64,000 nucleotides of DNA from Candidatus Giovannonibacteria bacterium RIFOXYD1_FULL_48_21 (GCA_001778985.1 MFIU01000002.1:57826-121825), one strand, 5' to 3'. Positions 12,565 through 56,077 are shown, counted from the stretch's first letter. Program-made: numbers and translations. The notes: generated from the sequence alone by a model not told the origin.

Positions 12565-12930
12565 ATGCTAACTGATTTAGTTAAAAAAATCAACCCCGTT
12601 AGAAATAAAATTTCTAACGGGGTCAAGTCCGAGGAGATTATTCTGATTTTGGTCATAATTTTGACGGCTTTGAGTGGTTTTGCCCTGGGCAGAATTTCGG
12701 CGCTTGGCGAAGAAAAATTTCCAATTAAAATCGAATCCGGCGAACTTCCGGGAACCCAAGAGGGGAGTGTTATTAAATCTTTCGTCGGCTCCAAAAACGG
12801 CGCGGTTTATCATTATCCGTCCTGCCCCGGAGCCAAACAAATCAAAGAAGAAAACAGAATTTATTTTTCGTCGCGCGGCGAGGCCGAGAAAGCCGGCTAT
12901 CGGCCAGCCGCCAATTGCCCGGGGTTATGA
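12565..12930 (+). CDS. Membrane-anchored protein with Ada-like metal-binding motif ([10 protein letters not shown]...[13 protein letters not shown])
   Basis: Resembles the Ada N-terminal Zn-binding pattern Y..V.TTGI.CRPSC...F..EA..AG.RPC, but only part of the Cys set is kept. TM helix near the N-terminus. A palindromic hairpin element lies at codons 10-19. Confidence 0.4.
12594..12622. repeat. Hairpin element A: CCCCGTTAGAAAT-aaaa-TTTCTAACGGGG
   Basis: Perfect 12-13-bp inverted repeat with a 4-nt spacer. Member of the recurring stem family. Confidence 0.7.
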
Positions 12931-12986
12931 GGAGGGAAGTGGAGGTTTGAATTAGATACCATGTCGCACATCCTACATTTTGCGAA

Positions 12987-13508
12987 CTACTGCACTGCAC
13001 GGTGTATCCACTTCCATTCTTTGCCGTTACTTTTCAGTGGTTTCATGGATTCATGGATTTTTATAAGTTTTTCAATGTCCGCCGGAGACCAGCGGTTTGA
13101 AATAAAACCCCTTTTACCTCCCTGTATATTTATCTCTTTTCTTTTATTCCTACCTATAATTTGCAAGGCGTCTTTCCAAAGAAGAAAATCTTTCGACTTT
13201 TTACCAAAAAGTTGATGTTTCTCGAAGAAGGGCACGATAATTTTCTGTAAATTATCTATGCCAGCTACCGAGTACCTAGCTACCTGTTTATTCTTTGCAA
13301 AAGTTATCTTCCCACACCCCAAAGTGTCTTTTATAAGTTTCAATAAGTCCACATCATCACTCCGGAGGCTTATGACAAATTCTGCACTCCAGCGGAAATA
13401 TTCAGGCCGATTTTTTCTTTTTTTCTTGACTTCACGCTGAAATTTTAAAGCAAAACATCCCTCCCCATCCACAAAACCCGCTATATAATCACCGGGGAGT
13501 TCGCCCAC
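12987..13508 (-). CDS. LAGLIDADG homing endonuclease (single-motif, free-standing)
   Basis: YIAGFVDGEGCF is a LAGLIDADG motif. 173 aa. It sits in an AT-rich stretch with no room for a group I intron core around it. Confidence 0.8.
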   Translation of the reverse strand: MGELPGDYIAGFVDGEGCFALKFQREVKKKRKNRPEYFRWSAEFVISLRSDDVDLLKLIKDTLGCGKITFAKNKQVARYSVAGIDNLQKIIVPFFEKHQLFGKKSKDFLLWKDALQIIGRNKRKEINIQGGKRGFISNRWSPADIEKLIKIHESMKPLKSNGKEWKWIHRAVQ

Positions 13509-13515
13509 AGTATTA

Positions 13516-13764
13516 TTATTTTTTTAATTTTTCTAGACTACCCGCTAACGGCTCCCAGAGCAAATCTTTAAACGTCCCGAAAATAATCTTCACCGGCGCC
13601 AAAAGATAATTTTTCCAAACGAATTTAATTCCTCCGAAAACGTACGAGAAATTGTCCTTAAGGGTTTTATTGCTGAATAATTCCCCCAGCGAAACTCCTA
13701 AAAGGCTTATAATGACTACCAAAAGGGCTAAAATTATGAGTATCTGGATAAATCCACTTTGCAT
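13516..13764 (-). CDS. Small hydrophobic protein (1-2 TM), function unknown
   Basis: ORF only; hydrophobic N-terminus. Confidence 0.3.
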   Translation of the reverse strand: MQSGFIQILIILALLVVIISLLGVSLGELFSNKTLKDNFSYVFGGIKFVWKNYLLAPVKIIFGTFKDLLWEPLAGSLEKLKK

Positions 13765-13791
13765 AGTTGTGATAGTATTATAGCATAACTT

Positions 13792-14079: not shown

Positions 14080-14133
14080 AAAGTTTCTTAATTTCCGATA
14101 CAATATACTCATTCCATAACGATTTGTCGCCCA

Positions 14134-14207
14134 TGGCTGCGGGGCTAGGGATCGAACCTAGATCTCCGGGTCCAAAGCCCGGCGTGCGACCATTACACCA
14201 CCCCGCA
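14134..14207 (-). tRNA. tRNA-Gln (anticodon TTG), CCA encoded
   Basis: Reverse complement is TGCGGGGTGGTGTAATGGTCGCACGCCGGGCTTTGGACCCGGAGATCTAGGTTCGATCCCTAGCCCCGCAGCCA. U1:A72. Anticodon stem CCGGG/CCCGG with loop CTTTGGA. Discriminator G. Confidence 0.7.
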
Positions 14208-18222: not shown

Positions 18223-18226
18223 TTTT

Positions 18227-23856: not shown

Positions 23857-26685
23857 TTATTGTTTAAGAATATCTCCCAATCGCCTTATGGCCTCGCCGT
23901 AGCGCGCCCAATCGCCATCCCTTTGCGCTCGGAGCGCCTCTTCATACGCACCGGCCGCTCTTCGTATGCGTTCCTGAATATCTTGAGCAGGTGCCGCTTG
24001 CGGCTTTACTCTTATTCCACCGCTCATCGACTCTGAAGACTCTTCAGAGTCTGAACGACCAAAGATTCTCATTAACCCCTCCTCCAGCGTCTCTTCCATG
24101 GCAATTTTATTTTCATACGCCACAACCACCCGTTTTAACTCCGGAATTTTTCCGGTTTGGGCCTTGAGATAGAGCGGGCGCACATACAAAAGCGATTCTT
24201 CAATCGGAATAACCAAAAGCGGACCTTGAATTACTTGCGACCCACCTTGACTCCAAAGCGAGATCTGCTGGCTAATCTCGGAGTCTTGGTTAATTCTGCC
24301 TATAATCTGTTTAGGTCCGAACACGAGCTTATCTTTAGGAAAACGATAGACTAATAATTTACCGTAGCTTTCCCCATCGTTACGGGCGACCATCCAAGAG
24401 GACAGATTGTCTTTTGCGCGGGGAGTAAAAGGCAACATCAAAACATATTCCTCTTTTTTCCCTACCTCGCCGGCAGGCGAGTCTCCCGGCAACTTCATAA
24501 TAATATGCCGTGGTTGCATCGGCGGAATTGCGCCTGCGCGGGACGCTCCCTCTCCTTCTATCGCAATGGCTGGAATCTCCCACTGGTCTTCTTTGTTGTA
24601 AAAAATCTGCGGATCATCCATGTGGTAGACTGAATACGCGGCAGTCTGCAGGGTGAAGATATCTTCGGGATAGCGCAAATGGGGAACCAGACTCTCTGGC
24701 ATCTCCGAAAGCGGCCGGAATGTTCCAGGGAAAATTGCGGCATATGTTTTTAAAATCGGGTCATTTGCGTCCGCTTGGTAGAAGACAACACTGCCATTGT
24801 ACGCATCAACCACTACCTTGACCGAGTTTCTGATGTAGTTTATATTTCCGCCGTTTAACCGCACAGGTTCCGAGTAAGGATAACGGTCACTCGTGGTATA
24901 AGCATCGGCAATCCAATACACCTTGCCATCGGCAATGACAATATATGGGTCTCTATCAAGGGTCAAAAACGGCGCGATCTTGGCGACCCTTCCGACAATA
25001 GTACGGTAATACAAAATACGGCTCTCGCTGGTTATGTCGTTAGACAAAAGCAGTTTGAGTGACTGAAATTTTACCGCGTAAAAGACGCGCCTTAAAAACG
25101 AGTTTATCTCCACTCCGCCCACGCCCTCGTATGTTGCGTAGACATTTTCTTCGCCCTTGGGGTAGTCAAACTCGCGGGACTTTGTTTTGGTAATGACATA
25201 GTCGTTTGAAAGTTCGCCGAAATAGATTTCCGGGCGCGAAATTTCAAGCTCTTTCACTTCCGCCTTTGGCGGCAAATCCTTAACGAACAAAACCGGCAAA
25301 CCTTCGGGAGTAACTTGATTCACCGGTCCGGCTGCCACACCGTATCCATGCGTAAATGTCAGCCGTTCATTAATCCAGTTTTTATTCGGGAGACTCTCCG
25401 AAGCCAACTCCCGTGGAGAGAGCATGATCTGGCGAATCTCTCCGTCTATGATATAGCGATCGTTATCAACTTCGGCAAATTCGTAATAGGTTCTGATTTC
25501 TTGTATCTGGGAAAAAGTTGATAAAAGGGGTTTTCTGTCCCAAAGCCGCACATTTTTGATCGTGAGATTATTGTTCGCGATATCAGACGCGGTGAGCGGC
25601 TTATCTCCGGAGATTTCTCGTTCCTCAATTTTATCAAGCGCAAACCCCTGCCGGGTAGCGGCAATATTATGCTTAATAAACGGCGTTTCCTTCACGAGTT
25701 CATTGGGAGCAACTACGAGCTTTTGGACAAGGGACGGGATCACTGCCCCGGCGAATCCCATGACAATATACAAAGAAACTGCTCCGACAAGTGGCGCCAA
25801 CTTTCCTTTCCACGCCCAAAAGACGGCTAAAACTGCCCCAACGAGAGCGGTAGCCATTGAGACCCACAGCATAAATATTCTCACGGTTGCGTCTGTGTAG
25901 GTCGCGCCAAACACTAAACCGCTTTGACTCGTCAAGAGCGCAAAGCGGGAAAGATAGACTCCGGCGGCAATGGTTGAGAGAAAAATGACGAGCAGGATAC
26001 CAAGATGAATTCTTGCCCCGTTAGAAGTAAAGAGGCGACTGCCGATGCGTAAGCGCATCGGACTTCTAACGGGGCGAGCCGCGCTTTCTGTCTGCTCGGG
26101 TAGATTTCCAAAATGAAGACTGCCTCGCAAAAAATATATGACTGCGGAACCGACAAGCGATAACAGAACAAGAAATTTTATCATCCCCAATCCCATCTGA
26201 AAAACAGGAAGGGTAAATAGATAAAAGCCGATGTCTTTACTGAAGATAGGATCTACTGTGCCAAATGGCGCGCCTGAAATAAATTTTAAGACCTCCTGCC
26301 AATTGCCAGCGGCTACGAGTCCGAAAAAAAATGCAATGACCGCGCTCAACACAATAACAACTTTTTTAACCGTGCGAGCTTCAACATTCACCACCTGCTG
26401 ACCGGTTAATGCCGCCGGTAAAACCGCGGTCCAAGAGATTTTTGAGCGGAGCGCCAAAAAGAAGCTGGCGAGTAAAAAAACCGCGGCAAAAATTCCCGCT
26501 GACGAAAATAACGCTATTTTAGCAACCAGAGATTTAATAAAGATTTGAGTGTGCCCAACCTCGGAAAACCACCACCAATCAGTAACAAAACCGACAATAC
26601 CTGAAAAAAGTATAAAAATAACAAAAATTCCAATAAAGAAAATTCGCGTGAGATACTTTGGGATAGTAGTCATAATATCGGTCAA
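23857..26685 (-). CDS. UPF0182 family large membrane protein
   Basis: N-terminal FVTDWWWFSEVGH plus a 7-TM block, then a roughly 700-aa soluble region. Typical UPF0182 architecture. Confidence 0.75.
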   Translation of the reverse strand: MTDIMTTIPKYLTRIFFIGIFVIFILFSGIVGFVTDWWWFSEVGHTQIFIKSLVAKIALFSSAGIFAAVFLLASFFLALRSKISWTAVLPAALTGQQVVNVEARTVKKVVIVLSAVIAFFFGLVAAGNWQEVLKFISGAPFGTVDPIFSKDIGFYLFTLPVFQMGLGMIKFLVLLSLVGSAVIYFLRGSLHFGNLPEQTESAARPVRSPMRLRIGSRLFTSNGARIHLGILLVIFLSTIAAGVYLSRFALLTSQSGLVFGATYTDATVRIFMLWVSMATALVGAVLAVFWAWKGKLAPLVGAVSLYIVMGFAGAVIPSLVQKLVVAPNELVKETPFIKHNIAATRQGFALDKIEEREISGDKPLTASDIANNNLTIKNVRLWDRKPLLSTFSQIQEIRTYYEFAEVDNDRYIIDGEIRQIMLSPRELASESLPNKNWINERLTFTHGYGVAAGPVNQVTPEGLPVLFVKDLPPKAEVKELEISRPEIYFGELSNDYVITKTKSREFDYPKGEENVYATYEGVGGVEINSFLRRVFYAVKFQSLKLLLSNDITSESRILYYRTIVGRVAKIAPFLTLDRDPYIVIADGKVYWIADAYTTSDRYPYSEPVRLNGGNINYIRNSVKVVVDAYNGSVVFYQADANDPILKTYAAIFPGTFRPLSEMPESLVPHLRYPEDIFTLQTAAYSVYHMDDPQIFYNKEDQWEIPAIAIEGEGASRAGAIPPMQPRHIIMKLPGDSPAGEVGKKEEYVLMLPFTPRAKDNLSSWMVARNDGESYGKLLVYRFPKDKLVFGPKQIIGRINQDSEISQQISLWSQGGSQVIQGPLLVIPIEESLLYVRPLYLKAQTGKIPELKRVVVAYENKIAMEETLEEGLMRIFGRSDSEESSESMSGGIRVKPQAAPAQDIQERIRRAAGAYEEALRAQRDGDWARYGEAIRRLGDILKQ

Positions 26686-30874: not shown

Positions 30875-30951
30875 TGGTGGACCCGAGCGGCTTCGAACCG
30901 CTAACCTCCCGAGTGCAAATCGGGTGCTCTAGCCAATTGAGCTACGGGCCC
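30875..30951 (-). tRNA. tRNA-Ala (anticodon TGC), CCA encoded
   Basis: Reverse complement is GGGCCCGTAGCTCAATTGGCTAGAGCACCCGATTTGCACTCGGGAGGTTAGCGGTTCGAAGCCGCTCGGGTCCACCA. G3:U70 identity pair. Anticodon loop TTTGCAC. Confidence 0.75.
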
Positions 30952-30975
30952 CGTTAGAAAATCATCTAACCAGTT
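30949..30975. repeat. Hairpin element B: CCCCGTTAGAAAA with a degenerate partner (tcatCTAACcag), overlapping the tRNA-Ala 5' end
   Basis: Left arm is intact; right arm is degenerate. Confidence 0.4.
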
Positions 30976-31394
30976 TACTGGACGATTATTTTTCCGCGGA
31001 GCGTTGGATTCAGATGGTCGTGCATGGGACACTCTTTCTTTTCGTTGAAAGTGAAAGAGTAGCTCTCGCCTGGCTCCACCGCTTCTAAGGAGTCAAAGCC
31101 CGGGCAGAGCTGATGAGCAGGGTGAACCCCTGATGCCGGCCGATGATTTTTAGTGTCTTTGTTCACGAATTTGACCGTATCCCCTGCTTTTATAGTTACT
31201 TCGGCAGGAGAAAATCCAGAAGCGCTCATCTCTATTACCGTTTCGCTCGCCCCGGACGAAGGAGCTGGCGCTGGCGTTGGGAGCGGCCTCGGGGGCGGTA
31301 TAATAGTCGAGGCGGCTTGATACTGCGCGGAGTAAAAATACCATCCTAATCCCGCCAAAATTAAAACAACTACGATTAGACCTAAAATTTTCAC
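30975..31394 (-). CDS. Secreted cupredoxin-like (blue-copper-fold) protein with non-canonical ligand set
   Basis: N-terminal TM or signal and a Pro-rich linker. C-terminal YSFTF..ECPMHDH...GKIIV resembles a cupredoxin C-terminal loop (C-x2-H). Confidence 0.4.
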   Translation of the reverse strand: MKILGLIVVVLILAGLGWYFYSAQYQAASTIIPPPRPLPTPAPAPSSGASETVIEMSASGFSPAEVTIKAGDTVKFVNKDTKNHRPASGVHPAHQLCPGFDSLEAVEPGESYSFTFNEKKECPMHDHLNPTLRGKIIVQ

Positions 31395-31502
31395 CCCGTT
31401 AGAAATTTAACCAATAAACTTTTCCCATGATCAAGAAAGCCAAAGGAGAGTTCGCTCTCGAAAAATATTCCAATAACAATCTTCGCTGAATTTCTAACGG
31501 GG
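31394..31502. repeat. Hairpin element C: CCCCGTTAGAAAT ... (82-nt loop) ... AATTTCTAACGGGG
   Basis: 13-bp perfect stem with an approximately 82-nt loop of unique sequence. Lies between two minus-strand genes. Confidence 0.65.
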
Positions 31503-31503
31503 T

Positions 31504-37349: not shown

Positions 37350-37405
37350 ACCTCCGACCCCGTCATTATCAGTGACGTGCTCTAACCAGGCTGAGCTACT
37401 CGTCC
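37331..37405 (-). tRNA. tRNA-Ile (anticodon GAT)
   Basis: Reverse complement is GGACGAGTAGCTCAGCCTGGTTAGAGCACGTCACTGATAATGACGGGGTCGGAGGTTCAAATCCTCCCTCGTCCA. Anticodon loop CTGATAA. Lies 3' of the 16S, as in rrn spacers. Confidence 0.7.
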
Positions 37406-37633: not shown

Positions 37634-37766
37634 AGTTTAAAAATTCTTTATATGCCCTGCCTGCTGGCAGGCAGATTCGACCTTCTTTATAAGTTTAAGC
37701 TAAATTCTCTCTTTTGTCCCGTTCAGCCGAGATTTTAGCCTGCCTGCCGGCAGGCAGGGCTCCTCG

Positions 37767-37830
37767 CCCCGTTAGAAATCCGAAAACCTTCGAATTCCTC
37801 TCAGGGCTCGCCCCGTGATTTCTAACGGGG
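37767..37830. repeat. Hairpin element D: CCCCGTTAGAAAT ... (38-nt loop) ... ATTTCTAACGGGG in the 16S 3' spacer
   Basis: 13-bp stem. The loop contains a partial extra copy (CTCGCCCCGTGA). The CTGCCTG-CYGG-CAGGCAG hairpins at 37655-37675 and 37740-37760 lie upstream, not adjacent. Confidence 0.65.
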
Positions 37831-37883
37831 CTCGGCCAACACCTTAATCAATCAAGTTTCGACCTAGACTTATAGTCTTAAAT

Positions 37884-39375
<1,492 letters not shown>

Positions 39376-39551
39376 GAATTTGAACGGGACAAAAGAGAAA
39401 ATTTCTTTTGTTTATTGTGTGTTCTAGATTTTTAATGTTCTGGCAAAATAAACCCGCGATGAGCTTCGCCTAAAAACCCATCGCGGATTTACTTCTTAAT
39501 TTTCAAGTTGTTTAAGCTGTCGTATACCTCATATTAATCCGCCCTACCTAC

Positions 39552-40413: not shown

Positions 40414-41145
40414 ACAAAACTGGCAAACATTCAATGTTCGCCATAATCTAATAAATACCCTTTTTCTAATTTTTCTTTGATGGGAGTATCCTCCACAAAA
40501 TTTCTATATTCATACCCATTTTCAAACTGCTCAAGTATAATCGGATTGCTCAAAAGTTGACCCCACCTATTTTCTTTAACAAAATCCTGAAAACTAGACC
40601 ACGGATATTCAATCTCTTTCCCTCTCCATTTCGCAAGTTCCCGTGGATTAAGGTGAATATAGGCCGAAAGATAATTTAGATATTCATTTTTATCTATGTG
40701 AATTGATTGAAATCGTCCGCCAAACAAATGACCGCTACGGCCATGACGCAAATTAAAGTACTTGGTATAAGCATCGGCCAGGCGCTGCATAAATTTCGAA
40801 ATACCGCCTTCTTGCGTTTCTTTCAAAATAAAGTGGAAATGATTGAGCATGAGGCAGAAGCAAATTAACTCAATTTTCCTATCTTTCAAAGTATCTTGAA
40901 AAAAATCAATGTCAAACCTTCGATGTTTGGCAAAAGGGACTAGACGAGAAATATGAGAATGAAATACGTCACCTTGAAACGCCATAAGCAAAGTTATAAA
41001 GCGCCATCTGTCTGCATCATCAATAAAGATTAAGCGTTTCTCAACACCGCGGTTATAAACGTGATAATATTCTCCTTCTCCTATGCGCCGGCTCATATGT
41101 TTATATTAATACACAACTGGCAAACATTGAATGTTTGCCAGTTTA
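40414..41145. mobile_element. IS200/IS605-family-like element 1 (HuH-Y1 transposase flanked by subterminal palindromes)
   Basis: Near-palindrome GGCAAACATTCAATGTTCGCC at 40423-40443 and perfect palindrome GGCAAACATTGAATGTTTGCC at 41119-41139. Both are preceded by AACTGG and sit in the same orientation. Confidence 0.6.
40431..41096 (-). CDS. tnpA: IS200-like HuH tyrosine (Y1) transposase / RAYT-like protein
   Basis: HuH motif LMLNHFHFIL. Tyr in SAYIHLNPRE. N-terminal GEYYHVYNRG. Paralog at 46059..46715. Confidence 0.65.
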   Translation of the reverse strand: MSRRIGEGEYYHVYNRGVEKRLIFIDDADRWRFITLLMAFQGDVFHSHISRLVPFAKHRRFDIDFFQDTLKDRKIELICFCLMLNHFHFILKETQEGGISKFMQRLADAYTKYFNLRHGRSGHLFGGRFQSIHIDKNEYLNYLSAYIHLNPRELAKWRGKEIEYPWSSFQDFVKENRWGQLLSNPIILEQFENGYEYRNFVEDTPIKEKLEKGYLLDYGEH

Positions 41146-46039: not shown

Positions 46040-46772
46040 TTACGAAAATGTTGAACATTCAATGTTCAACAGCTAAGGCTCCTTCGAGCTTTTTTAAAGG
46101 CGTTTTCACGACGAATTCACGATATTCGTTGCCAGTATCGAATTGCCCAAGAATAATTTCTGGATTTAAAAAATTGCCCCATCTGTTTTCGTCAATATAA
46201 TCTCGGAAACTTGACCATGAATAGTTCACTTCATTGTCCCGCCATTTTTTCAATTCTCTTGGGTTAGCGTGGAGGTAAGCTGAAAGATGTCTAAGATAAT
46301 TATTGGTATCAATATGCCTCCGGTGAAATCTTCCGCCAAATAGATGCCCGCTCCGATCATAACGGGTGTTAAAATATTTAGTATAAGAATTGGCCAGACG
46401 TTGCATATATTTTGAAATACCTCCCTCTTTTACCTCTTGGGCAATCAAATGAAAGTGATTCGGCATTAAGCAAAAAGCTATAAGTCTAACATGTCGGTTT
46501 TTTAGAATCTCGCCAAACACCTCGTCATTAAATTTTTGATTCTGAACTAGTTTGACTATCCGCTTCATTGGGTTCAATATCTCCTCGCCCTGAAAACCGA
46601 TAAGCAAAGTCATAAATCGCCAACGGTCTCTGTCATCAAGAAATAGGGAGCGTTTTTCAACTCCCCGATTATAGATGTGGTAATATTCACCGACCCCAAG
46701 CCCACTCCATTTCATATAAATCCATTGTAGCGCCAAAATGTTGAACATTCAATGTTCAAATGTTCAACAAGT
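46040..46772. mobile_element. IS200/IS605-family-like element 2
   Basis: Perfect palindrome TGTTGAACATTCAATGTTCAACA at 46048-46070. A related copy at 46738-46770 flanks the transposase gene. Confidence 0.6.
46059..46715 (-). CDS. tnpA: IS200-like HuH Y1 transposase paralog
   Basis: CLMPNHFHLIA HuH motif. SAYLHANPRE Tyr motif. About 55% identical to 40431..41096. Start trimmed to the Met at MKWSGLG. Confidence 0.65.
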   Translation of the reverse strand: MKWSGLGVGEYYHIYNRGVEKRSLFLDDRDRWRFMTLLIGFQGEEILNPMKRIVKLVQNQKFNDEVFGEILKNRHVRLIAFCLMPNHFHLIAQEVKEGGISKYMQRLANSYTKYFNTRYDRSGHLFGGRFHRRHIDTNNYLRHLSAYLHANPRELKKWRDNEVNYSWSSFRDYIDENRWGNFLNPEIILGQFDTGNEYREFVVKTPLKKLEGALAVEH

Positions 46773-47342
46773 TCAGATAAATTTTGTACAGAAACTGCGG
46801 CGGTGGATGGCGGAAAGACCGTGCTTTCGAAGTAGGCGGCGGTGCAGTTTGGTGCCGTAGCCTTTGTGGATTTCGAAAGAATATTTCGGGAATTTTTTGG
46901 CGAGCCTAATCATTTTCCGGTCGCGCGTGACTTTGGCGATGACCGAAGCCGCCGCTATTATGGGAATCTTTTCATCCCCCTTGATTATAGTTTTCTGCGG
47001 ATATTCCGGCGGAGCGTAAAGCGAGCCGTCCAGCAAAAGCATTTTGGGCTTAACGGAAAGTCGAGACAAAAGTCGCCGGATGCCTATTTTAACGGCGCGC
47101 GAAATACCGCGCCGGTCAATAATCCCCTCGCCCACCGAGGTTACGCCGTATTCTAAGTGCGGGTGTTCTCTCAAATGCCGAAACCACTCTTCGCGTTTTT
47201 TTAAGGTAAGTTTTTTGGAATCCTTGATGGCCTTAAAATTTTTTTTATAAATCTTCAAAGGACAAGCCACATAGGCCAGAGTGACCGGCCCGGCCAAAGG
47301 CCCCCGTCCGGCTTCATCGATTCCAACAAGATAACGCCGCAT
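46773..47342 (-). CDS. rnhB: Ribonuclease HII
   Basis: GIDEAGRGPLAGPV catalytic motif. Confidence 0.85.
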   Translation of the reverse strand: MRRYLVGIDEAGRGPLAGPVTLAYVACPLKIYKKNFKAIKDSKKLTLKKREEWFRHLREHPHLEYGVTSVGEGIIDRRGISRAVKIGIRRLLSRLSVKPKMLLLDGSLYAPPEYPQKTIIKGDEKIPIIAAASVIAKVTRDRKMIRLAKKFPKYSFEIHKGYGTKLHRRLLRKHGLSAIHRRSFCTKFI

Positions 47343-47877: not shown

Positions 47878-50800
47878 TTGTCTAGAATTAAATTATCTAT
47901 GAGCTTTGTGCATCTGCATACCCACTCGCACTATTCGCTCCTGGACGGACTGACCAAAATCAAAGATTTGGTGAAAGAAGCCGCCCGCTTGGAAATGCCG
48001 GCTTTGGCGCTAACCGACCACGGCAACCTCTACGGAGCCATTGAATTTTATAAACAAGCCAAGAATGAAGGCGTTAAGCCCATCATCGGGGTGGAAGCGT
48101 ACGTGGCTTCGCGCTCTCTTCACGACAGAGAGCCGGGCGTGGACGAACGGCGTTACCACTTAACTCTGCTGGCTGAAAATGAGGAGGGCTATCACAATCT
48201 AATCGAGCTTGTCACCGTTTCGCATCTGGAAGGTTTTTATTATAAGCCGCGAGTGGATAAAGAGCTTTTGCGAAAACATGCCAGGGGCGTAATCGCGCTC
48301 TCTGGCTGCTTCAGCGGCGAGATTCCCCGGACTCTTTTCAGAAATGATTTCCCGGCGGCGGAAAAACTTGTCGAAGAGTATAAAGAAATTTTCGGCAAAG
48401 ATAATTTCTTCATCGAAACTTCCCATCATCCCGGGATTCCCAATCACGACGAAATTCAAAAGGCGCTCCGGGAACTTAGCGCCAAAACTAAAACTCCGCT
48501 CGTCGCCACCCAGGACTCGCATTACCTCAAGCCCGACGATGCTTCGGCTCAAGATATTCTGCTGGCGGTGCAGACCAACACCAAACTTGACGACGAAGAC
48601 CGGCTCACGATGAAGGCGGATGATTTTTCGTTTCGTCCTCCCCTCGAGATGCGAGAATTTTTCAAGGATTGGCCCGGTGCCGCGGAAAACACCCTGGAGA
48701 TCGCGAAGCGCGTCAATCTTACCATTCCCATGGGCATACTGCAGCTGCCGTATTTCGAAGTGCCGAGCGGATTTACTCCGGAAAGTTATCTTGAAAAACT
48801 TTGCCTGGAACGTCTCGAAAAACGCTATCCCAACCCGAGTCCGGATACGAAAAAAAGGCTGGAGTATGAGCTGGGAGTTATTAAAAAGACCGGTTTTTCA
48901 ACTTACTTTTTGATTGTTCAGGACTTGGTCAATTGGGCGAAGAGGGCGGAAATTGTAGTCGGTCCGGGCAGAGGTTCGGCCGCCGGCTCTCTGGCTTCCT
49001 ATGTTCTCGGCATAACCAATGTAGACCCGATAAAATACAATCTCTTTTTTGAACGCTTCATGAATCCCGACAGAATCTCGCCTCCTGATTTTGACCTTGA
49101 CTTCGCGGACACGAGGCGCAACGAAGTTTTGGAATACGTTCAGCAAAAATACGGGCGGGATAAAGTCGCGCAGATAATAACTTTCGGCACCATGGCCGCC
49201 CGCGCCGCCATCCGCGACGCTGGGCGCGCGTTGGGAATGAGCTACGGCTTTTGCGACCAGCTCGCGAAACTGATTCCATTCAATCCTACTCAAGGAATGA
49301 AAGAGGGGTGGCTCGAACATTGCTTGAAAGAAATTGAGGAGCTGAAAACCAGGTATCAAAGCGACCCGGAAGCAAAACGTCTTCTGGACGCGGCGCTAAA
49401 ACTGGAAGGAGTGGCGCGGCACGCTTCGGTCCACGCTTGCGGAGTCGTGATGACCAAAGAACCCTTGAAGAATATCGTGCCTCTGCAGTACGCGACTTCG
49501 CAGGGCGAGGCCGGCAGCAAAGAAGAAGTAATCGTAACCCAATATGAGATGCGCGCCGTTGAAGATTTGGGCCTTTTGAAGGTTGATTTTCTGGGACTAA
49601 AAAACTTAACTATCATAGAAAATACCCTGAAACTGGTGAAGGAGCGCCACGGCGTTGAGCTGGATTTGCCAGAAATCGAACCCAACGACTCTAAAGTTTT
49701 TAAGACATTGGAGGAAGGAAAAACCGTGGGTGTATTTCAGCTGGAAGGACAAGGCATGACTCGCTACCTGAAAGAACTTCGGCCGACAAACCTTGAAGAC
49801 ATTATCGCCATGATTTCTCTTTATCGGCCCGGCCCGATGGAACTTATCCCTTCTTACATAAAAAGAAAGCACGGCCGCGAGCAAGTTACTTATCTCCATC
49901 CCAAACTCGAGCCGATTTTAAAAAACACATACGGAATCGCGGTCTATCAGGAGCAAATGATGCAGATTGCCAGGGACCTGGCCGGCTTCACTCTGGCGGA
50001 AGCCGACACCCTGCGAAAAGCCATCGGCAAAAAAATCAAGAGTCTTCTGGCCGAACAAAAAGAGAAATTCGTCAGCCGCATGATTGCCAATAAAGTCGAA
50101 AAATCAATCGCCCGAAAACTCGGCGAACTTTTGGAGCCATTCGCCCGCTACGGCTTTAACCGCTCCCACGCCGCCTCTTACGCCCGGGTGGCTTTCGAAA
50201 CCGCTTATCTCAAAACCTACTGGCCGCTGGAGTTCATGGCCAGCTTAATGAATTCAGACGAGAAAGACATCGACCGGTTGAGTTTTCTGATGAAAGAGGC
50301 AAAAGAGCTCGAAATCGAAGTTAAGCCTCCGGAACTCAACACTTCTTACGACGGCTTCGCGCCCGAAGAATCTCCAAGCGGGCCGGCAATCCGCTTCGGC
50401 CTTCGCGCCATAAAAAACGTAGGTTCGAACGTGGTGCGGGCGATAATCAAAGAGCGAAGCGAAAACGGCATCTTCACGAACTTGGAGGACTTTTTGGGGC
50501 GGATTCCCTATCTAGATTTAAATAAAAAGTCTCTGGAGGCTTTGATTAAATCTGGAGCCACGGACTACCTGGGCGAGCGCGCGGCGCTCCTCGACAATAT
50601 TGAACTTTTGCTCCGGCACCATCGCGAGTCCAATAAACAGAGAAATGGCGCCCAAGATTCTCTTTTCGGAGAATCAGCTTCCGGGTTCCAGCCGAGCCTC
50701 GCCATGAAAGAAGTTCCTCCGGCGAGCCCGGAAGAAAAGCTGGGTTGGGAAAAAGAGCTTCTGGGTCTTTTCATATCCGGCCATCCCCTGGAGAAATTTC

Positions 50801-51162
50801 GCGAAGTGCTCTCGCGGCAGAAATTAAACATCAAGCTCATAAAATCCTTCAAAGCCGGCAGCCCCGTGATTGTCGGTGGGATAATCGAAGAATTCAAAAA
50901 AGTTCTGACTCGCAACAACCAACCCATGCTTTTTTTGAAGCTCGCGGATTTTACCGACAGCATCGAGGCCGTTGTTTTCCCCCGGCTCTTATCGGCGAAC
51001 GGGGGCGTTTTCCAGCCGGACGCCTGCGTGGTGCTGAAAGGAAGTATTTCCATCCGTGGCGGCAACCCCTCCATCATCTGCGACGAAGCCCGAAAATTGG
51101 GAGAAAAAACTAGCCCCGTTAGAAGTTCTAGCGAGGCAACTCTAGATGCCGAAATTGCATAA
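47878..51162 (+). CDS. dnaE: DNA polymerase III alpha subunit
   Basis: PHP domain HLHTHSHYSLLDG, polymerase core, OB fold. 1094 aa. Confidence 0.95.
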   Translation: MSRIKLSMSFVHLHTHSHYSLLDGLTKIKDLVKEAARLEMPALALTDHGNLYGAIEFYKQAKNEGVKPIIGVEAYVASRSLHDREPGVDERRYHLTLLAENEEGYHNLIELVTVSHLEGFYYKPRVDKELLRKHARGVIALSGCFSGEIPRTLFRNDFPAAEKLVEEYKEIFGKDNFFIETSHHPGIPNHDEIQKALRELSAKTKTPLVATQDSHYLKPDDASAQDILLAVQTNTKLDDEDRLTMKADDFSFRPPLEMREFFKDWPGAAENTLEIAKRVNLTIPMGILQLPYFEVPSGFTPESYLEKLCLERLEKRYPNPSPDTKKRLEYELGVIKKTGFSTYFLIVQDLVNWAKRAEIVVGPGRGSAAGSLASYVLGITNVDPIKYNLFFERFMNPDRISPPDFDLDFADTRRNEVLEYVQQKYGRDKVAQIITFGTMAARAAIRDAGRALGMSYGFCDQLAKLIPFNPTQGMKEGWLEHCLKEIEELKTRYQSDPEAKRLLDAALKLEGVARHASVHACGVVMTKEPLKNIVPLQYATSQGEAGSKEEVIVTQYEMRAVEDLGLLKVDFLGLKNLTIIENTLKLVKERHGVELDLPEIEPNDSKVFKTLEEGKTVGVFQLEGQGMTRYLKELRPTNLEDIIAMISLYRPGPMELIPSYIKRKHGREQVTYLHPKLEPILKNTYGIAVYQEQMMQIARDLAGFTLAEADTLRKAIGKKIKSLLAEQKEKFVSRMIANKVEKSIARKLGELLEPFARYGFNRSHAASYARVAFETAYLKTYWPLEFMASLMNSDEKDIDRLSFLMKEAKELEIEVKPPELNTSYDGFAPEESPSGPAIRFGLRAIKNVGSNVVRAIIKERSENGIFTNLEDFLGRIPYLDLNKKSLEALIKSGATDYLGERAALLDNIELLLRHHRESNKQRNGAQDSLFGESASGFQPSLAMKEVPPASPEEKLGWEKELLGLFISGHPLEKFREVLSRQKLNIKLIKSFKAGSPVIVGGIIEEFKKVLTRNNQPMLFLKLADFTDSIEAVVFPRLLSANGGVFQPDACVVLKGSISIRGGNPSIICDEARKLGEKTSPVRSSSEATLDAEIA

Positions 51163-51184
51163 AACATGAAAACTTCTAACGGGG
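51114..51184. repeat. Hairpin element E: CCCCGTTAGAAGTT ... (43 nt) ... AACTTCTAACGGGG spanning the dnaE stop and thrS start
   Basis: 14-bp stem with a compensatory variant (GAAGTT/AACTTC). The loop contains the dnaE TAA and the thrS ATG. Confidence 0.65.
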
Positions 51185-52392
51185 TGAAGAAACAAAAGAA
51201 GCCCCAGTCTCCTGAAAAATCAAAACCAAAGGACCACCGCGAGCTCGGCCGGGAGCTGGATTTGTTTTCTTTCCACGAGGTTTCGCCCGGCGCGCCCTTT
51301 TGGCACTACAAAGGAATGCTCATTGTAAAGGCGCTGGAAAAATTCATCCGGGAACTCCAGGACAAACACGGCTATGAAGAAATTTCTACGCCGATAATGG
51401 TCAAAAAAGAGCTTTTTGAAAAATCCGGTCATTGGGAATTTTTTAAGGATGACATGTTTTATTTCAAAGCGGGAACTGAAACGTACGCCTTGAAACCCAT
51501 GAACTGTCCTGAAAGCGCCCTGGTTTATCAAACCCGCACCAGAAGCTATCGCGACCTGCCGCTCCGGCTCGCGGAGATTGGGCGTTTGCATAGAAATGAA
51601 CTCTCGGGAGTTTTAGGAGGACTTTTGCGCGTCAGGCAAATCACAATGGATGATGCTCACATCTACTGCCGTTTTGACCAGATAAAATCAGAACTTGTGA
51701 GCGTTTTAAAAATGACGGAGGAATTTTACAAGCGCCTGGGCCTTCCGGTCGTATATGGACTCGCCACCCGTCCTAAAAAGGCGATGGGCAGCGTAAAAAC
51801 GTGGAAAGAGGCGGAAAAACTTCTGGGCGAGGCGCTGGAAGAGCTCGGGCTTAAATATCAAACCTTGAAAGGCGAGGGCGCTTTCTACGGACCAAAAATA
51901 CATTTTGATATTAAAGATTCTCTCGACCGCACCTGGACTATCGCCACCGCCCAACTGGATTTTCAAATTCCGGAACGCTTTCAACTTGAATATATTGACG
52001 CCGACGGACAGGCCAAACGTCCGGTCATAATCCATCGCGCGATTTTTGGCTCATTTGAACGCTTTATCGGAATTCTTCTGGAACACTTTAAGGGCGCGCT
52101 TCCCTTCTGGCTCTCGCCGGTGCAAGTCGCGGTGCTGGCCATCAACGACCAAGTCACAGATTATTCCAAAAAAGTTTTCGAGGCCTTAAAAAACAAAAAT
52201 GTCCGCGCGGAATTGGACCTGCGAAACGAATCCGTCGGCAAGAAAATTCGGGAAGCTGAACTGCAAAAAATTCCCTATCTTCTGATAATCGGTGAAAAAG
52301 AAGCCGCCTCCGAAAAAGTTGCCGTCCGCGAACGGGGCAAGGGAGATATCGGCCAGAAAACTCTTGAAGAATTTTGGGAAATCATAAAATAA
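51166..52392 (+). CDS. thrS: Threonine--tRNA ligase, short form (catalytic + anticodon-binding domains only)
   Basis: Starts at DHRELGRELDLF (the start of the catalytic domain in full-length ThrS). Class II motifs. No TGS or editing domain. Confidence 0.85.
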   Translation: MKTSNGVKKQKKPQSPEKSKPKDHRELGRELDLFSFHEVSPGAPFWHYKGMLIVKALEKFIRELQDKHGYEEISTPIMVKKELFEKSGHWEFFKDDMFYFKAGTETYALKPMNCPESALVYQTRTRSYRDLPLRLAEIGRLHRNELSGVLGGLLRVRQITMDDAHIYCRFDQIKSELVSVLKMTEEFYKRLGLPVVYGLATRPKKAMGSVKTWKEAEKLLGEALEELGLKYQTLKGEGAFYGPKIHFDIKDSLDRTWTIATAQLDFQIPERFQLEYIDADGQAKRPVIIHRAIFGSFERFIGILLEHFKGALPFWLSPVQVAVLAINDQVTDYSKKVFEALKNKNVRAELDLRNESVGKKIREAELQKIPYLLIIGEKEAASEKVAVRERGKGDIGQKTLEEFWEIIK

Positions 52393-52443
52393 AGCGCCGA
52401 ACATTACTGCAAGGCGCCTTATCTCTGCCGGAGAAAATTTTCC

Positions 52444-52719
52444 TTAGTTTAAATTTGCCGTGCGCTTCATCTTCTCGATACTTTTCAGGCCGTTTCCTTC
52501 TAGCAGCACGCCGCTTACCAATCCGACTAGGAAAACTTGTTCTCCATAACGATGGTCAAAAACAGTTACTTTGAATACTCGTTTGCGTATGCCATCTTCA
52601 AAAACGCTGGTCTGATGAATTTTTACGTCCTGGCCTGCGCGCCGAAAATTTTCAAAAATCCTCATGGCAATCTCCACCGGCTTATCATCAACTTGTAAAC
52701 GATCTAAATGATCAAACAT
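52444..52719 (-). CDS. Hypothetical protein
   Basis: ORF only. Confidence 0.25.
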   Translation of the reverse strand: MFDHLDRLQVDDKPVEIAMRIFENFRRAGQDVKIHQTSVFEDGIRKRVFKVTVFDHRYGEQVFLVGLVSGVLLEGNGLKSIEKMKRTANLN

Positions 52720-52776
52720 AAGAAATCCCTCCCTTCGTCAGATCTATCAATTTCATTAAAACCAATAAAAATTAAA

Positions 52777-53607
52777 ATGTCAAAAAGCAAGTTAATCATA
52801 ATAGTTGGGCTAACTGCGTCTGGCAAATCGGAATACGCGGCAAAGCTCGCGAAGAAAATCGGCGGGGAGATTGTTTCGGCCGACTCAAGGCAAGTTTACA
52901 AAGGGCTCGATATCGGCACGGCCAAGATTAAAGGCCAGTGGTGCACGGATATCGCCGACACAAAGAAAACAACCACGGTAGTCGAATGGAAAAGATGCGC
53001 CGAGGATGCAATCGATACGATATATCGTATCGGTAAAACTCCTATTATTGTTGGCGGCACTATGTTTTATATCAAAGCATTGGCGGACGGACTGATTTTG
53101 CCGCAAGTTCCGCCGAATCCAAAGCTCCGGAAAAAACTGGAGAAAAAGTCCGCGACTGAACTTTTTGAAATCCTAAAAAAGAAAGATGCCCAGCGCTCAA
53201 AAATCATCGAGCCTAAAAACAAACGCCGTTTAATCCGGGCATTGGAAATTGTTGCCGCCCTAGGCCAAGTCCCGAAACTAAAGAAGCGCCGAAAATATGA
53301 CGCGCTTTTTCTGGGCCTCAAGCGAACGCCCGCCGAGCTCAAAAGACGGATTGAAAAACGGATTTCCCGGATGTTAAAACGAGGGCTCGTGAAGGAAGTT
53401 CAAAAACTTCGCGCGGCTCGCCTCCCCTGGAAACGAATCTATGAATTCGGCTTTGAATATAAATATCCCGCGCTCTATCTTCAGAAAAAAATCTCCAGAA
53501 ACGAGATGAAAGAAATGCTTCTGAAAGAAACGTTGGATTACGCCCGCCGCCAGATGGTCTGGTTTAAAAAAGATAAAAGAATCAGATGGATTTCGAGGCC
53601 TTGTTGA
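52777..53607 (+). CDS. miaA: tRNA dimethylallyltransferase
   Basis: P-loop IIIVGLTASGKS and DSRQVYKGLDIGTAK. Confidence 0.85.
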   Translation: MSKSKLIIIVGLTASGKSEYAAKLAKKIGGEIVSADSRQVYKGLDIGTAKIKGQWCTDIADTKKTTTVVEWKRCAEDAIDTIYRIGKTPIIVGGTMFYIKALADGLILPQVPPNPKLRKKLEKKSATELFEILKKKDAQRSKIIEPKNKRRLIRALEIVAALGQVPKLKKRRKYDALFLGLKRTPAELKRRIEKRISRMLKRGLVKEVQKLRAARLPWKRIYEFGFEYKYPALYLQKKISRNEMKEMLLKETLDYARRQMVWFKKDKRIRWISRPC

Positions 53608-53919
53608 AACAAGGCCTCGTTGGATGATTTCCGCCGTGGAAAACTAAACTACGAAAACTTCGAGCTGGTTATCCTCATAGAGCAGAACCTTATCTCGCCG
53701 GATGTCAACTATTCCGTAGCCTGCTTCGCAGACGACAATGTTGTCATCTCGAATCCCGATTACTGGGAATTCGGACCCTTTTGTGATATGGAAAGTAAAA
53801 TCTAGATGCGGATTAAACTCCTTCGCTTCCTCTTCTGAAATGAAACCAACGACTAGAGCTCTCATAAATCCTCCCTCCGATGAACTTCTATCGAGATATT
53901 AGCAAGGCAGGCTAAAAAG

Positions 53920-55419
53920 TCAAGCTTGCCTCAATATTTTTTCAAAAAGCTCTTTGAGGATGCCGGGGCTTGCTCCTATTTTTTTTGCTTTCGCTTCGCG
54001 CATGGCTTGGCCGATTAGAAACTGGAGAGAGGCCTCTTTCCCCTTTTTATAATCCTCTACGGCTTTTTGATTTCGCGCGATGATATTTTTTACTATTCCT
54101 TCAAGCGCGTTCGCGTCAGACGAAATTAAAAATCCTTCTTTTTCGGCAATGTCAGACGGGTCTTCGCCGGTTTCAATCATAATTCGCAAAATGTCCTTGG
54201 CCCCGCGAGAAGATATCTCTCCCCCGGCGGCCATTTTCATAAGCTCTCCAAAATTCTCCGGCGTAATTCTCATCTCCTCTATGGGAAGTTCTTTTTCTTT
54301 GAGCAGACCCAAGAGATCCGAGGTAATATAATTCGCTGAAAGTTCGATAAGTTTTTTCGGCTCGATTTTCTCGCTCCAGCGCTCGACCTCTGAAACCGCG
54401 GCTTCGAAAAATTCAGAAAGTTTCCGGTCGCGGGTAAAAACTTCGAGCTTCTCGCCATCCAAGCCGTATTCTTTTCTAAAACGAACTCTTTTTTGACCTG
54501 GAAGTTCCGGAAGTTCGTCTTTCAAAATCTCGGGATTGAATTCCGCGACTTCGGAGAGTTTCAAGGGCGGCAAATCCGGCTCCGGAAAATAACGATAGTC
54601 ATGCGCCTCTTCCTTGGAACGCTGGGAAACGGTAATTTCTTTAACATCGTTCCAGCCGCGGGTTTCCTGCTTGACTTTCTCCCCTTTTCCCAGAAGCTTC
54701 GACTGGCGTTCAATTTCAAACTCAATCGCGCGTTCCACGTTTCGAAACGAATTGATATTTTTTATCTCAACTTTAGTTCCTAACTTGGCGGTTAAACCGC
54801 CAAGTGGCGGTTTAACCGCTTCTGCGATTGAAATATTAGCTTCTACCCTCATCTGACCTTTTTCCATGTCCGCGTCTGAAATTCCTAAATAGCGCAAGAT
54901 AAGCTGCAGTTCCTCGGCAAATTCTCGAGCTTCTTTAGCTGAAGATATATCGGGCTCGGTAACGAGTTCCATCAACGGCACCCCGGAGCGGTTGAAATCA
55001 ATGAGCGTCGCTTTATTTTTATCGTCGTGAACCGAACGCGCGGCGTCTTCTTCCAAGTGAACCCGAGTGATTCTAATTTTTTTACCAGAAAACGGAAGTT
55101 CTAAAATTCCTTCTTTCACTAAGGGATTTTTGTACTGCGAGATCTGATACCCCTTTGGCAAATCCGGATAAAAATAGTTTTTGCGGTCAAAGCGCGACTC
55201 GTCCGCGAGTTTGGCGCCCAGCGCCGCGCCCAGCCGCAAGACGTGCTTTATGGCTTCCTTGTTAGCGACCGGAAGCGTCCCGGGATGACCTAAACATATT
55301 GGGCAGATATTGGTGTTAGGGTGTTTTTCTAAAGGGTCGTTCAAACACCCGCAAAACATTTTCGTTTTGGTTTTCAGCTCCACATGGACTTCAAGTCCGA
55401 TAGTCGCTTGATACGCCAT
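53920..55419 (-). CDS. gatB: Asp-tRNA(Asn)/Glu-tRNA(Gln) amidotransferase subunit B
   Basis: MAYQATIGLEVHVELKTKTKMFCGC is the GatB N-terminus. Full length. Confidence 0.9.
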   Translation of the reverse strand: MAYQATIGLEVHVELKTKTKMFCGCLNDPLEKHPNTNICPICLGHPGTLPVANKEAIKHVLRLGAALGAKLADESRFDRKNYFYPDLPKGYQISQYKNPLVKEGILELPFSGKKIRITRVHLEEDAARSVHDDKNKATLIDFNRSGVPLMELVTEPDISSAKEAREFAEELQLILRYLGISDADMEKGQMRVEANISIAEAVKPPLGGLTAKLGTKVEIKNINSFRNVERAIEFEIERQSKLLGKGEKVKQETRGWNDVKEITVSQRSKEEAHDYRYFPEPDLPPLKLSEVAEFNPEILKDELPELPGQKRVRFRKEYGLDGEKLEVFTRDRKLSEFFEAAVSEVERWSEKIEPKKLIELSANYITSDLLGLLKEKELPIEEMRITPENFGELMKMAAGGEISSRGAKDILRIMIETGEDPSDIAEKEGFLISSDANALEGIVKNIIARNQKAVEDYKKGKEASLQFLIGQAMREAKAKKIGASPGILKELFEKILRQA

Positions 55420-55444
55420 AAAAAATATGATAACCTAATTTTCT

Positions 55445-56017
55445 ATGCTTTCCTACACAGACTTAACCCCCGGGACGCAATTTATTCTCGATGGGGAGCC
55501 GTACGAGGTCTTGGAATATCAATTTGTCCGGATGCAGCAGAGAAAACCTTCGGTTCAAACCAAGATAAAAAATTTAATCTCGGGAAAAATTGTTTCGAAA
55601 ACTTTCCAACCTTCGGATTCTCTCAAGGAAGCCGAGATTGAAAAGGAGGAACTCTCATTCATCTACGCGCACCGCGGCGAATACGTTTTTCAACAAGAAA
55701 AAGAGCGACTCACTCTCGCCGAGAACGTCATCGGCGAGGAAGCAAAATATTTAAAAGCTGGCCTCGCTGTAACCGCCTATAGATTCAATGGCAGAATCAT
55801 AAACATTAAGCTTCCTGTAAAAGTGGATTACGTCGTTAAAGAAGCCCCGCCCGGTTTCAAGGGTGACACTGCCACCGGCGGCAATAAAAGCGTCACGCTG
55901 GAAAACGGACTTCAAATCAACGTTCCTCTTTTCATAGAAGCCGGCGACACGGTCCGGGTAAACACCGAAAGCGGTGAGTATACGGAGAGGATTTCCAAAG
56001 CGCGTCAAGCCCGTTAG
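55445..56017 (+). CDS. efp: Elongation factor P
   Basis: KPSVQTKIKNLISGKI... EF-P fold, 190 aa. Confidence 0.9.
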   Translation: MLSYTDLTPGTQFILDGEPYEVLEYQFVRMQQRKPSVQTKIKNLISGKIVSKTFQPSDSLKEAEIEKEELSFIYAHRGEYVFQQEKERLTLAENVIGEEAKYLKAGLAVTAYRFNGRIINIKLPVKVDYVVKEAPPGFKGDTATGGNKSVTLENGLQINVPLFIEAGDTVRVNTESGEYTERISKARQAR

Positions 56018-56077
56018 AAATAAGCCGCCCCAGGGCGACTGCTGCCCTGCTTTCAGCATGGTGGATTTCTAACGGGC
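56009..56077. repeat. Hairpin element F: GCCCGTTAGAAAT ... (43 nt) ... ATTTCTAACGGGC after efp
   Basis: 13-bp stem with a compensatory G/C change at the stem end. Lies between convergent efp and a DUF2905 gene. Confidence 0.65.

Follow-up and report, generated by a model that had tools for sequence, protein, structure and literature searches.

Dispersed hairpins in a Giovannonibacteria genome as probable copies of a very short MITE-like transposable element with ends common to at least eight phyla

Hairpin Elements in the Window

The stretch of DNA analysed here, 64,000 nucleotides from Candidatus Giovannonibacteria bacterium RIFOXYD1_FULL_48_21 (GCA_001778985.1, MFIU01000002.1:57826-121825; hereafter the window, with positions counted from its first letter), carries a family of short palindromic elements, each made of two inverted arms of nearly invariant sequence around a variable interior, scattered among ordinary housekeeping genes. 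An original prediction, made from the sequence alone, had listed six of these hairpins, all at correct coordinates, and had overlooked a full seventh one at 26016-26074; the window thus holds six full copies and one truncated copy, a density of about one per 9 kb. The elements are read here as probable copies of a non-autonomous DNA transposon of the kind known as miniature transposable elements with inverted repeats (MITEs), moved in trans by a predicted transposase. The 10-mer CCCGTTAGAA at the core of the arms occurs exactly 13 times in the 64 kb, and with at most one mismatch it gives 18 matches against 4.97 expected, a number that none of 100 shuffles reached. An arm search of the window returned six pairs and one single arm. 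The copies, with the target-site duplication (TSD) where one is present, are the following:

12594-12622 (copy 1), 29 nt, CCCCGTTAGAAAT-AAA-ATTTCTAACGGGG, TSD TCAA at 12590-12593 and 12623-12626; in frame in the N-terminal part of the open reading frame (ORF) 12565-12930 (+), read as I N [P V R N K I S N G] V K
26016-26074 (copy 2), arms 26017-26026 and 26064-26073, CCCG..CGGG span 57 nt; in frame inside the UPF0182 gene 23857-26685 (-), adding the peptide PVRSPMRLRIGSRLFTSNG to a variable loop
30949-30975 (short copy), CCCCGTTAGAAAATCATCTAACCAG; adjoining the 5' end of tRNA-Ala (30875-30951, -)
31394-31502 (copy 4), 109 nt, TSD TTCA (TGAA on the - strand) at 31390-31393 and 31503-31506; between an RnfD-like gene (31504-32226, -) and a cupredoxin gene (30975-31394, -), at a former ATGA stop/start overlap
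37767-37830 (copy 5), TSD CTCG on both sides (span 37763-37834); in the spacer of 16S rRNA (37883-39376, -) and tRNA-Ile (37330-37405, -)
51114-51184 (copy 6), flanking tetramers CTAG and TGAA, non-identical; at the junction of dnaE (47878-51162, +) and a class II aminoacyl-tRNA synthetase gene (thrS in the original prediction)
56009-56077 (copy 7), terminal G...C in place of C...G, TSD TCAA on both sides (span 56005-56081); at the end of efp

Individual copies differ in their state of preservation and in what they contribute to the genes around them. The window belongs to a CPR (Candidate Phyla Radiation) bacterium, and the product of its UPF0182 gene, which carries copy 2, shows 100% identity to a protein recorded under the name Candidatus Giovannonibacteria bacterium RIFOXYD1_FULL_48_21. 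The ORF that holds copy 1 matches the Ada Zn-binding domain of Pfam. Copy 2 is flanked by CTTG and CGAG, and since these tetramers differ it would be an old or reworked insertion. The short copy at 30949-30975, whose right arm had already been described as degenerate, is indeed a truncated or degenerate short form that folds at only -9.8 kcal/mol (z = -1.7), and a relative (L157) reads AAACTGG-ACT-GGGCC at this place, without the insert. The loop of copy 6 contains the dnaE stop codon and an ATG, a GTG start stands directly at its right arm, and a degenerate internal arm (TTCTAGCGAG) suggests a composite or nested copy. The stop codon of efp (56015-56017) is the TAG within the left arm of copy 7, a copy that is unchanged in three other assemblies encoding the same EF-P.

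Target-Site Duplications and Empty Sites

Evidence on the nature of the family lies just outside the arms. A perfect 4-bp TSD is present at four of the six full copies in the window (TCAA, TTCA, CTCG and TCAA), a feature that the original prediction did not mention, and the same pattern was found in 139 elements taken from 120 genome loci and the window. Positions -5 to -2 of the left flank are identical to positions +2 to +5 of the right flank in 82, 69, 74, and 74% of these elements, and the flanking 6-mers agree at five or six of six positions in 65 of the 139, where shuffled pairings would give 7.9. Outside the termini, the two flanks repeat each other in direct rather than inverted orientation; arms, complementary termini and direct-repeat flanks together carry the signature of an element with terminal inverted repeats (TIRs) and a 4-bp TSD. 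The duplicated tetramer is mostly TNNA (TAAA/TTTA 31, TGAA/TTCA 28, TCAA/TTGA 14), with CNNG making up about 20%, and fully palindromic tetramers are rare (TTAA in 3 of 139).

Two pairs of filled and empty sites complete this picture. At one UPF0182 site, the empty gene (P0023) reads GTT GCA AGT TTG and the filled one (P0034) reads GTT GCA AG[C CCC GTT AGA GAC ... GTC TCT AAC GGG ACA AG]T TTG, a gain of 54 nt in which CAAG is doubled, the frame is kept and the flanks are otherwise identical. The empty site of copy 4 is found in the relatives L157 and L158, where the RnfD-like and cupredoxin genes overlap by ATGA in the sequence ...A TGAA AACTTTAGG; the filled site on the - strand of the window is ...A TGAA [C CCCGTTAGAAAT ... 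ATTTCTAACGGG G] TGAA AATTTTAGG. The left TGAA preserves the upstream TGA stop, and the terminal G of the element together with TG forms a new GTG start. A further locus, L154, contains nested elements, each with a duplication of its own (TTAA for the outer, TAAA for the inner). The idea that the loops are native host sequence finds no support in the empty sites.

At a single UPF0182 site, compared between the window gene and its counterparts in L141, L146, L147, and L148, close relatives differ in both the interior and the orientation of the element. Two pairs of close relatives each combine one "type A" and one "type B" interior, which have the motif AGAGGCG.CTGC in common but in opposite orientation, and the 27 nt upstream of the element are alike in the window (W), P0010, and P0050 save for one base in P0010. 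Each of the following would account for this pattern: that the element was repeatedly excised from a hot spot and inserted there again, that it flips between its inverted ends, or that co-occurring lineages exchanged short tracts by recombination.

Ends, Interiors and Folding

The ends of the element are Y-CCCGTTAGA-RRY and its mirror, forming TIRs of 13-14 bp (as an arm pair, Y-CCCGTTAGA ... TCTAACGGG-R). Across genomes the elements measure 24-140 nt and contain no ORF of their own. The stem reaches exactly two pairs past the 10-mer in 85 of 156 elements, and these two extra positions vary from element to element while agreeing between the arms of one (AT/AT 58, GT/AC 26, GC/GC 12, AG/CT 9, AC/GT 8). 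Likewise, in 94% the base immediately outside CCCG can pair with its counterpart (C..G in 82 elements, T..A in 46). The arm itself, as in CCCCGTTAGAAAT, is not self-complementary and lacks GTAG.

The loops had been said to share no sequence, which is true of whole loops, since these cannot be aligned, but not of their parts: three window loops (26.0, 51.1, and 56.0 kb) have a GGCGACTGC-like motif in common, and across genomes there are subfamilies with conserved interiors and lengths. Partial internal arms occur in many loops and can be attributed to nested insertion, which is documented in L154. Loop interiors were also considered as carriers of promoters and rejected as such, with TATAAT-like boxes in 25 of 40 on the reverse strand and 21 of 40 on the forward strand.

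All six full window copies fold strongly, at -20.6 to -38.9 kcal/mol with z-scores of -4.6 to -7.6 (copy 1 at -20.6 kcal/mol, z = -7.6). Paired differences between stems had been taken as compensatory changes showing selection on the hairpin, an argument that does not hold in this form: the differences mostly mark subfamilies whose ends were copied from one sequence, and orthologous arms decay without compensation, as in P0041 compared with P0010, where a G-to-A change in the left arm is accompanied by right-arm changes that do not restore pairing. Among a few variant elements whose TSDs are perfect, changed-but-paired positions and broken pairs number five each. The co-variation of the two ends is real; a shared recognition protein, templating of one arm on the other, and selection for pairing explain it equally. 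A hairpin in RNA or single-stranded DNA would follow from the inverted ends and is not needed to explain their conservation.

A scan for intrinsic terminators over 50000-57000, which covers copies 6 and 7, did not call the element stems, and no T-run follows either of them; the flanks of all window copies are TSD positions rather than T-runs. No Rfam family corresponds to the hairpins, either in the window at the gathering threshold or in six loci at E <= 1. Nor was a description of the family found in the searchable literature, where searches by arm sequence and by topic gave primers or unrelated papers only.

Positions Relative to Genes

The hairpins had been described as lying at gene boundaries, and many of them do, yet the 26.0-kb copy is intragenic, the 12.6-kb copy stands in frame within an ORF, and the efp stop lies inside the arm of the 56.0-kb copy. 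Among 131 elements with enough flank to be classified, 36 stand directly at an RTG start that opens an ORF of 80 codons or more, 25 (about 19%) are enclosed by long ORFs, in 14 the TAG of the arm ends the upstream ORF, and 5 furnish both a stop and a start. Lengths are divisible by three in 76 of 140 elements. Intragenic copies nearly all use the frame CCC GTT AGA ... TCT AAC GGG, translated as PVR...SNG, which is the only frame open through both arms, and the palindromic element occurs in either orientation relative to genes. The sequence A|TGAA|Y is a good target and is also common at starts and overlaps. We read the position pattern as survivorship in compact genomes combined with a target preference for R|YNNR|Y, a claim that does not extend to targeting of gene starts as such. 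A common flanking GTTTAC was also tried as the code for the GFT of pilin signals and was dropped, the intragenic copies using another frame.

A side observation concerns the original start codons next to the elements, 6-9 nt before which TATAAT-like boxes often end (L005, L009, L046, L059, L107, and others). Leaderless transcripts in these genes of the Candidate Phyla Radiation (CPR) would fit such spacing; the signal is weak in AT-rich DNA, with 13 of 40 when one mismatch is allowed.

Distribution and Subfamilies

The original prediction had proposed a genome-wide search for arm pairs and had suggested that the family might be lineage-specific. When such a search was run across species, on one genome per species (596 Gb) and with the pattern CCCGTTAGAA-N30-60-TTCTAACGGG, it returned at least 120 stretches against a chance expectation of about 17, estimated by hand, and lineage specificity had to be abandoned, for identical arms occur in at least eight phyla. 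Counted by record title among the loci listed, the distribution is as follows:

Patescibacteria, many classes: about 53
Planctomycetota (Pirellulales, Phycisphaerae, an anammox genome): about 35
Omnitrophota: about 10
Desulfobacterota / "delta": 6
Nitrospirota / Thermodesulfovibrionia: 3
WOR-3, KSB1, and Ratteibacteria: 1 each
Gammaproteobacteria, metagenome-assembled genomes (MAGs): 2

Element lengths fall into size classes of 27, 51, 57, 63-66, and 75-78 nt, and among the loci listed 7 of 11 elements of 51 nt are from Omnitrophota, 9 of 10 of 57 nt are from Planctomycetota, and those of about 76 nt are mostly from Patescibacteria. Since two or three contigs come from each of several non-CPR MAGs and the size classes track phylum, misbinning of MAGs cannot explain the spread. 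Several loci, L027 and L154 among them, hold more than one copy within 8 kb. Carriage by viruses was considered and set aside: viral contigs gave only 5 and 12 matches, several of which are ordinary terminators with A/T-run flanks.

Transposase Genes near the Elements

Two genes for Y1 transposases, similar to those of IS200 insertion sequences (ISs) and to the transposases associated with repetitive extragenic palindromic (REP) sequences (REP-associated tyrosine transposases, RAYTs), lie in the window:

40431-41096 (-), Y1 transposase gene, 221 amino acids
46059-46748 (-), Y1 transposase gene, 229 amino acids

Both proteins match PF01797, carry the HUH and Tyr motifs and are 58% identical to each other. 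Each gene is flanked on both sides by a palindrome of its own, the first (40420-41143) by CTGGCAAACATT.AATGTTTGCCAG (AACTGGCAAACATT-C-AATGTTTGCCAGTT) and the second (46040-46775) by GTTGAACATTGAATGTTCAAC, with the downstream one overlapping the stop codon. In L060, a homologous gene carries a palindrome of a third type, TACAAGGTTCAACCTTGTA. In the same locus, the palindrome TACAAGGTTCAACCTTGT stands upstream and downstream of the Y1 gene at 3543-4265 and occurs once more in frame inside it (LQGSTLL). The family gave 4788 matches, often on contigs of 1-3 kb and with CPR names wherever the source was named. When GEYYH motifs with a CCCGTTAGA arm 20-50 nt upstream were sought metagenome-wide, a single distinct locus came up, where another palindrome stands on the far side of the gene, and a Y1 gene is present in 1 of about 135 element loci.

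The ends of the element also led to a comparison with the IS1380 family, represented by ISEcp1, IS1678, ISKpn23, and a Lactiplantibacillus member. Parentage by IS1380 or piggyBac was not borne out: only CC is common to the ends of the element and those of IS1678 and ISEcp1, and no homolog was found near the elements.

Proposed Mechanism and Alternative Explanations

Taken together, these observations make it probable that the hairpins are copies of a non-autonomous, MITE-like DNA transposon. Each copy consists of two 13-14-bp inverted ends (5'-Y CCCGTTAGA R RY ... mirror-3') around a filler of about 0-140 nt. On insertion, a 4-bp target is duplicated, the preferred site being R|YNNR|Y and the tetramer mostly TNNA. 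A predicted trans-acting transposase, encoded outside the window, would bind and cut the ends; it is probably of DDE type and would make cuts staggered by 4 bp. As the ends are identical from Patescibacteria to Planctomycetota, this enzyme would be conserved or horizontally shared across phyla. Surviving copies stand where they do no harm, in intergenic DNA, at start codons, at ATGA overlaps, at gene ends and in tolerant in-frame protein loops. At start codons and ATGA overlaps the duplicated TGAA and the terminal purine of the element rebuild a stop and an RTG start, and at gene ends the TAG of the arm becomes the stop. The suggestion of a recognition site for a dedicated nuclease or recombinase, made in the original prediction, survives in a broad sense, in that the family is dispersed and palindromic and its arms are best read as transposon ends.

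Several results weigh against this explanation. In about 1 Mb of loci no arm pairs 0.6-4 kb apart, as expected of an autonomous copy, were found, and arms that seemed to stand alone proved to belong to elements with an indel or to lie at contig ends. Clustering of 1090 adjoining ORFs for a recurrent neighbour protein gave housekeeping families only (dnaX, polA, leuS, fusA, dnaA), a jackhmmer search with the four family transposases found no IS1380-like protein among 2432 ORFs in 1.15 Mb around some 170 elements, and no DDE transposase is present among the window proteins. The smallest copies, at 24-30 bp, are perhaps dead deletion products; we know of no element this short that is mobilised by a DDE transposase. 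The two window copies at 26.0 and 51.1 kb lack matching flanks. At the UPF0182 site, the element is identical at 55 of 57 positions in genes whose overall identity is 80%, with 68-77% over the neighbouring 300 nt, which is odd for a one-off insertion. Finally, some variants have arms changed in concert (GTTACA/TGTAAC, GTTAAA/TTTAAC), which selection for pairing would explain too. The tiny size, the cross-phylum ends and the lack of a partner enzyme near about 170 copies leave room for a more novel mechanism. The concerted arm changes and the turnover of interior and orientation at one fixed site belong here too. We give a minor share of credence to a folded single-strand hairpin moved by a class of enzyme new to target-duplicating transposition, maybe a widely shared host or episomal enzyme, with some copies co-opted, for instance in keeping overlapping genes apart or in extending proteins by a peptide loop.

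Three other explanations have to be weighed against a MITE-like transposon. The elements could be relatives of REP sequences and REPINs (inverted REP pairs), single-stranded hairpins cut and rejoined by a Y1 transposase of the HUH, IS200/RAYT type common in CPR bacteria; the two Y1 genes of the window, the abundance of their family, the concerted changes in some arms, and the short form of the element, whose 13-14-bp stem and 3-nt loop have the size and shape of the palindromes flanking Y1 genes, all speak for it. HUH elements of the IS200/IS605 group insert without target duplication, and the 4-bp duplication is present here, both in the statistics and at two empty sites. Every Y1 gene has its own, different palindrome, the scan for arms upstream of such genes and the census of element loci each gave a single case, and the arms are neither palindromic nor provided with the GTAG of REPs. 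The explanation is therefore unlikely, and "REP-like", which the original prediction had proposed, does not apply in the strict REP/RAYT sense. Even less likely is an origin as host-selected RNA hairpins that arose or are maintained in place for processing, stability, termination, or control of translation. The strong folding, the many copies placed at gene boundaries, those of the 16S-tRNA spacer and of the 5' end of a tRNA, and the intact arms at an orthologous site in genes about 80% identical would suit it; the copies, though, are insertions with TSDs for which empty sites exist in two filled/empty pairs, about a fifth of them (25 of 131) stand in frame inside ORFs, and they occur in either orientation. 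The lack of a T-run at the scanned 51.1- and 56.0-kb copies and of any Rfam family, together with the uncompensated arm mutations of P0041, points the same way, and a signal of structure only would not be expected to keep one and the same 13-mer in eight phyla or more. The proposal of an RNA hairpin is not supported as to origin, while individual copies may have been co-opted secondarily.

The arms might, as a third alternative, be sites of a tyrosine recombinase (similar to integron attC or to dif) or paired DNA-uptake sequences. Their GTTAGAA/TTCTAAC resembles the integron core sites GTTRRRY/RYYYAAC, attC sites likewise combine a conserved stem with a variable centre, and many of the host phyla are known as integron carriers; uptake sequences of Neisseria, for their part, also occur in inverted pairs. 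Yet the core sites stand in the opposite order to attC (GTTAGAA...TTCTAAC), as the original prediction had correctly pointed out and as the sequence itself shows. The copies stand singly, dispersed among housekeeping genes rather than set in arrays, no integrase is found among the window proteins, and tyrosine recombinases make no target duplication; as for uptake sequences, these are mostly single, while nearly all arms in the window are paired. We regard this alternative as highly improbable, and the reading as recombinase sites is largely refuted by the TSDs and the dispersed single copies.

Other Features of the Window

Some further observations were made along the way. A free-standing LAGLIDADG homing-endonuclease ORF of 173 amino acids lies about 360 nt from copy 1, outside any rRNA gene. 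The rRNA region has an unusual layout, in which 16S is followed by tRNA-Ile some 480 nt further on, across a spacer that carries two repeat elements and, by reading of the sequence, an apparent open frame of about 60 codons. The second of these repeats belongs to another palindromic family (GCCCTGCCTGCCGGCAGGCAGGGC-like) and adjoins copy 5; similar motifs occur at L074 4002-4016, inside the loop of another element, and in L115 and L140, and in several UPF0182 orthologs the motif is apparently read as LPAGQAGL within the same variable loop. The tRNA-Ala gene (30875-30951) is set off by about 6.4 kb of protein genes, and the window is without a 23S gene, with an 88-nt match to 23S positions 2127-2214 (57.8 bits) just downstream of rplU. 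Upstream of an operon for squalene-cyclase-like, DUF4430, and DUF6580 proteins stands an adenosylcobalamin (AdoCbl) riboswitch (57.3 bits), and the operon is probably concerned with cobalamin uptake or binding. A protein of 185 amino acids has the central Cas2-like domain of the PaaX type and scores 25.0 bits with the NCBIfam cas2 model, against a cut-off of 24.5; no CRISPR array was seen nearby. The coordinates of these features are:

4594-4681, match to 23S rRNA
4831-5388 (-), protein with PaaX-type central Cas2-like domain
12987-13508 (-), LAGLIDADG homing-endonuclease ORF
33295-33436 (+), AdoCbl riboswitch
about 37632-37450 (- strand), apparent open frame in the 16S-tRNA-Ile spacer
37654-37674 and 37740-37760, GCCCTGCCTGCCGGCAGGCAGGGC-like repeats

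Significance and Comparison with Known Systems

The genomes of CPR bacteria, or Patescibacteria, are among the smallest and most streamlined, and yet copies of the element sit in a 16S-tRNA spacer, at a dnaE/synthetase junction, at the end of efp and in a conserved membrane protein. If the proposed explanation is true, the element would be an annotation hazard for thousands of MAGs, through spurious extensions of N termini, displaced start and stop positions and PVR...SNG peptides placed within proteins. It would also mark horizontal exchange among co-occurring phyla of groundwater and sediment, it would be a source of protein-loop variation comparable to the Rickettsia palindromic elements (RPEs), and a conserved enzyme of transposition would still be there to be found.

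Among known systems, the likeness to piggyBac and the IS1380 family lies in the CC(C) termini and the 4-bp T..A duplication, and it is a lead only. The TIR of piggyBac is 13 bp long, CCCTAGAAAGATA. Its ends begin with CCC and its target is TTAA, with the variants TAAA and TCAA (PMC10813416). Beyond CC the ends of the element do not align with IS1678, for which a plasmid record shows a CCTG... end and GATAG as the 5-bp TSD, or with ISEcp1, and TTAA is rare as a target here. REP sequences and REPINs with their RAYTs also form dispersed inverted pairs with a variable spacer and a hairpin, and Y1 genes are present in the same window; the elements differ from them in their non-palindromic arms without GTAG, in their TSDs, in the frequency of intragenic copies and in the other palindromes beside the Y1 genes. 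Integron attC sites have short inverted core sites similar to TCTAAC/GTTAGA, a highly variable centre and a folded single-strand form, and are set apart by the order of the core sites, by their arrays and integrase, and by the lack of the TSD that is present here.

Closer parallels are found in the RPEs and in the MITEs of other bacteria. RPEs are palindromic and occur repeatedly in frame in unrelated protein genes, where they are translated (PMC10969869), just as the elements described here are read as PVR...SNG in 25 of 131 cases. RPEs, about 100-150 bp long, form families of conserved sequence that are restricted to Rickettsia, whereas these elements are smaller, defined by their ends and spread across phyla; the likeness is one of behaviour in genes, and a relation in sequence is not expected. 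Bacterial MITEs such as the Correia/NEMIS elements of Neisseria, RUP of pneumococcus, and the QMITEs of Coxiella insert at gene boundaries and sometimes create in-frame fusions (PMC10969869). The family had been called unlike MITEs, a view that cannot be kept for elements that are short and non-coding, with TIRs and a TSD, with empty sites and with multiple dispersed copies. They depart from the bacterial MITEs named above in that the ends are only 13-14 bp, whole elements go down to 24-30 bp, interiors are largely unrelated within a genome, and the ends recur in at least eight phyla. Save for an identified parent element, the family has all that defines a MITE; it works like a MITE and behaves in genes like the RPEs.

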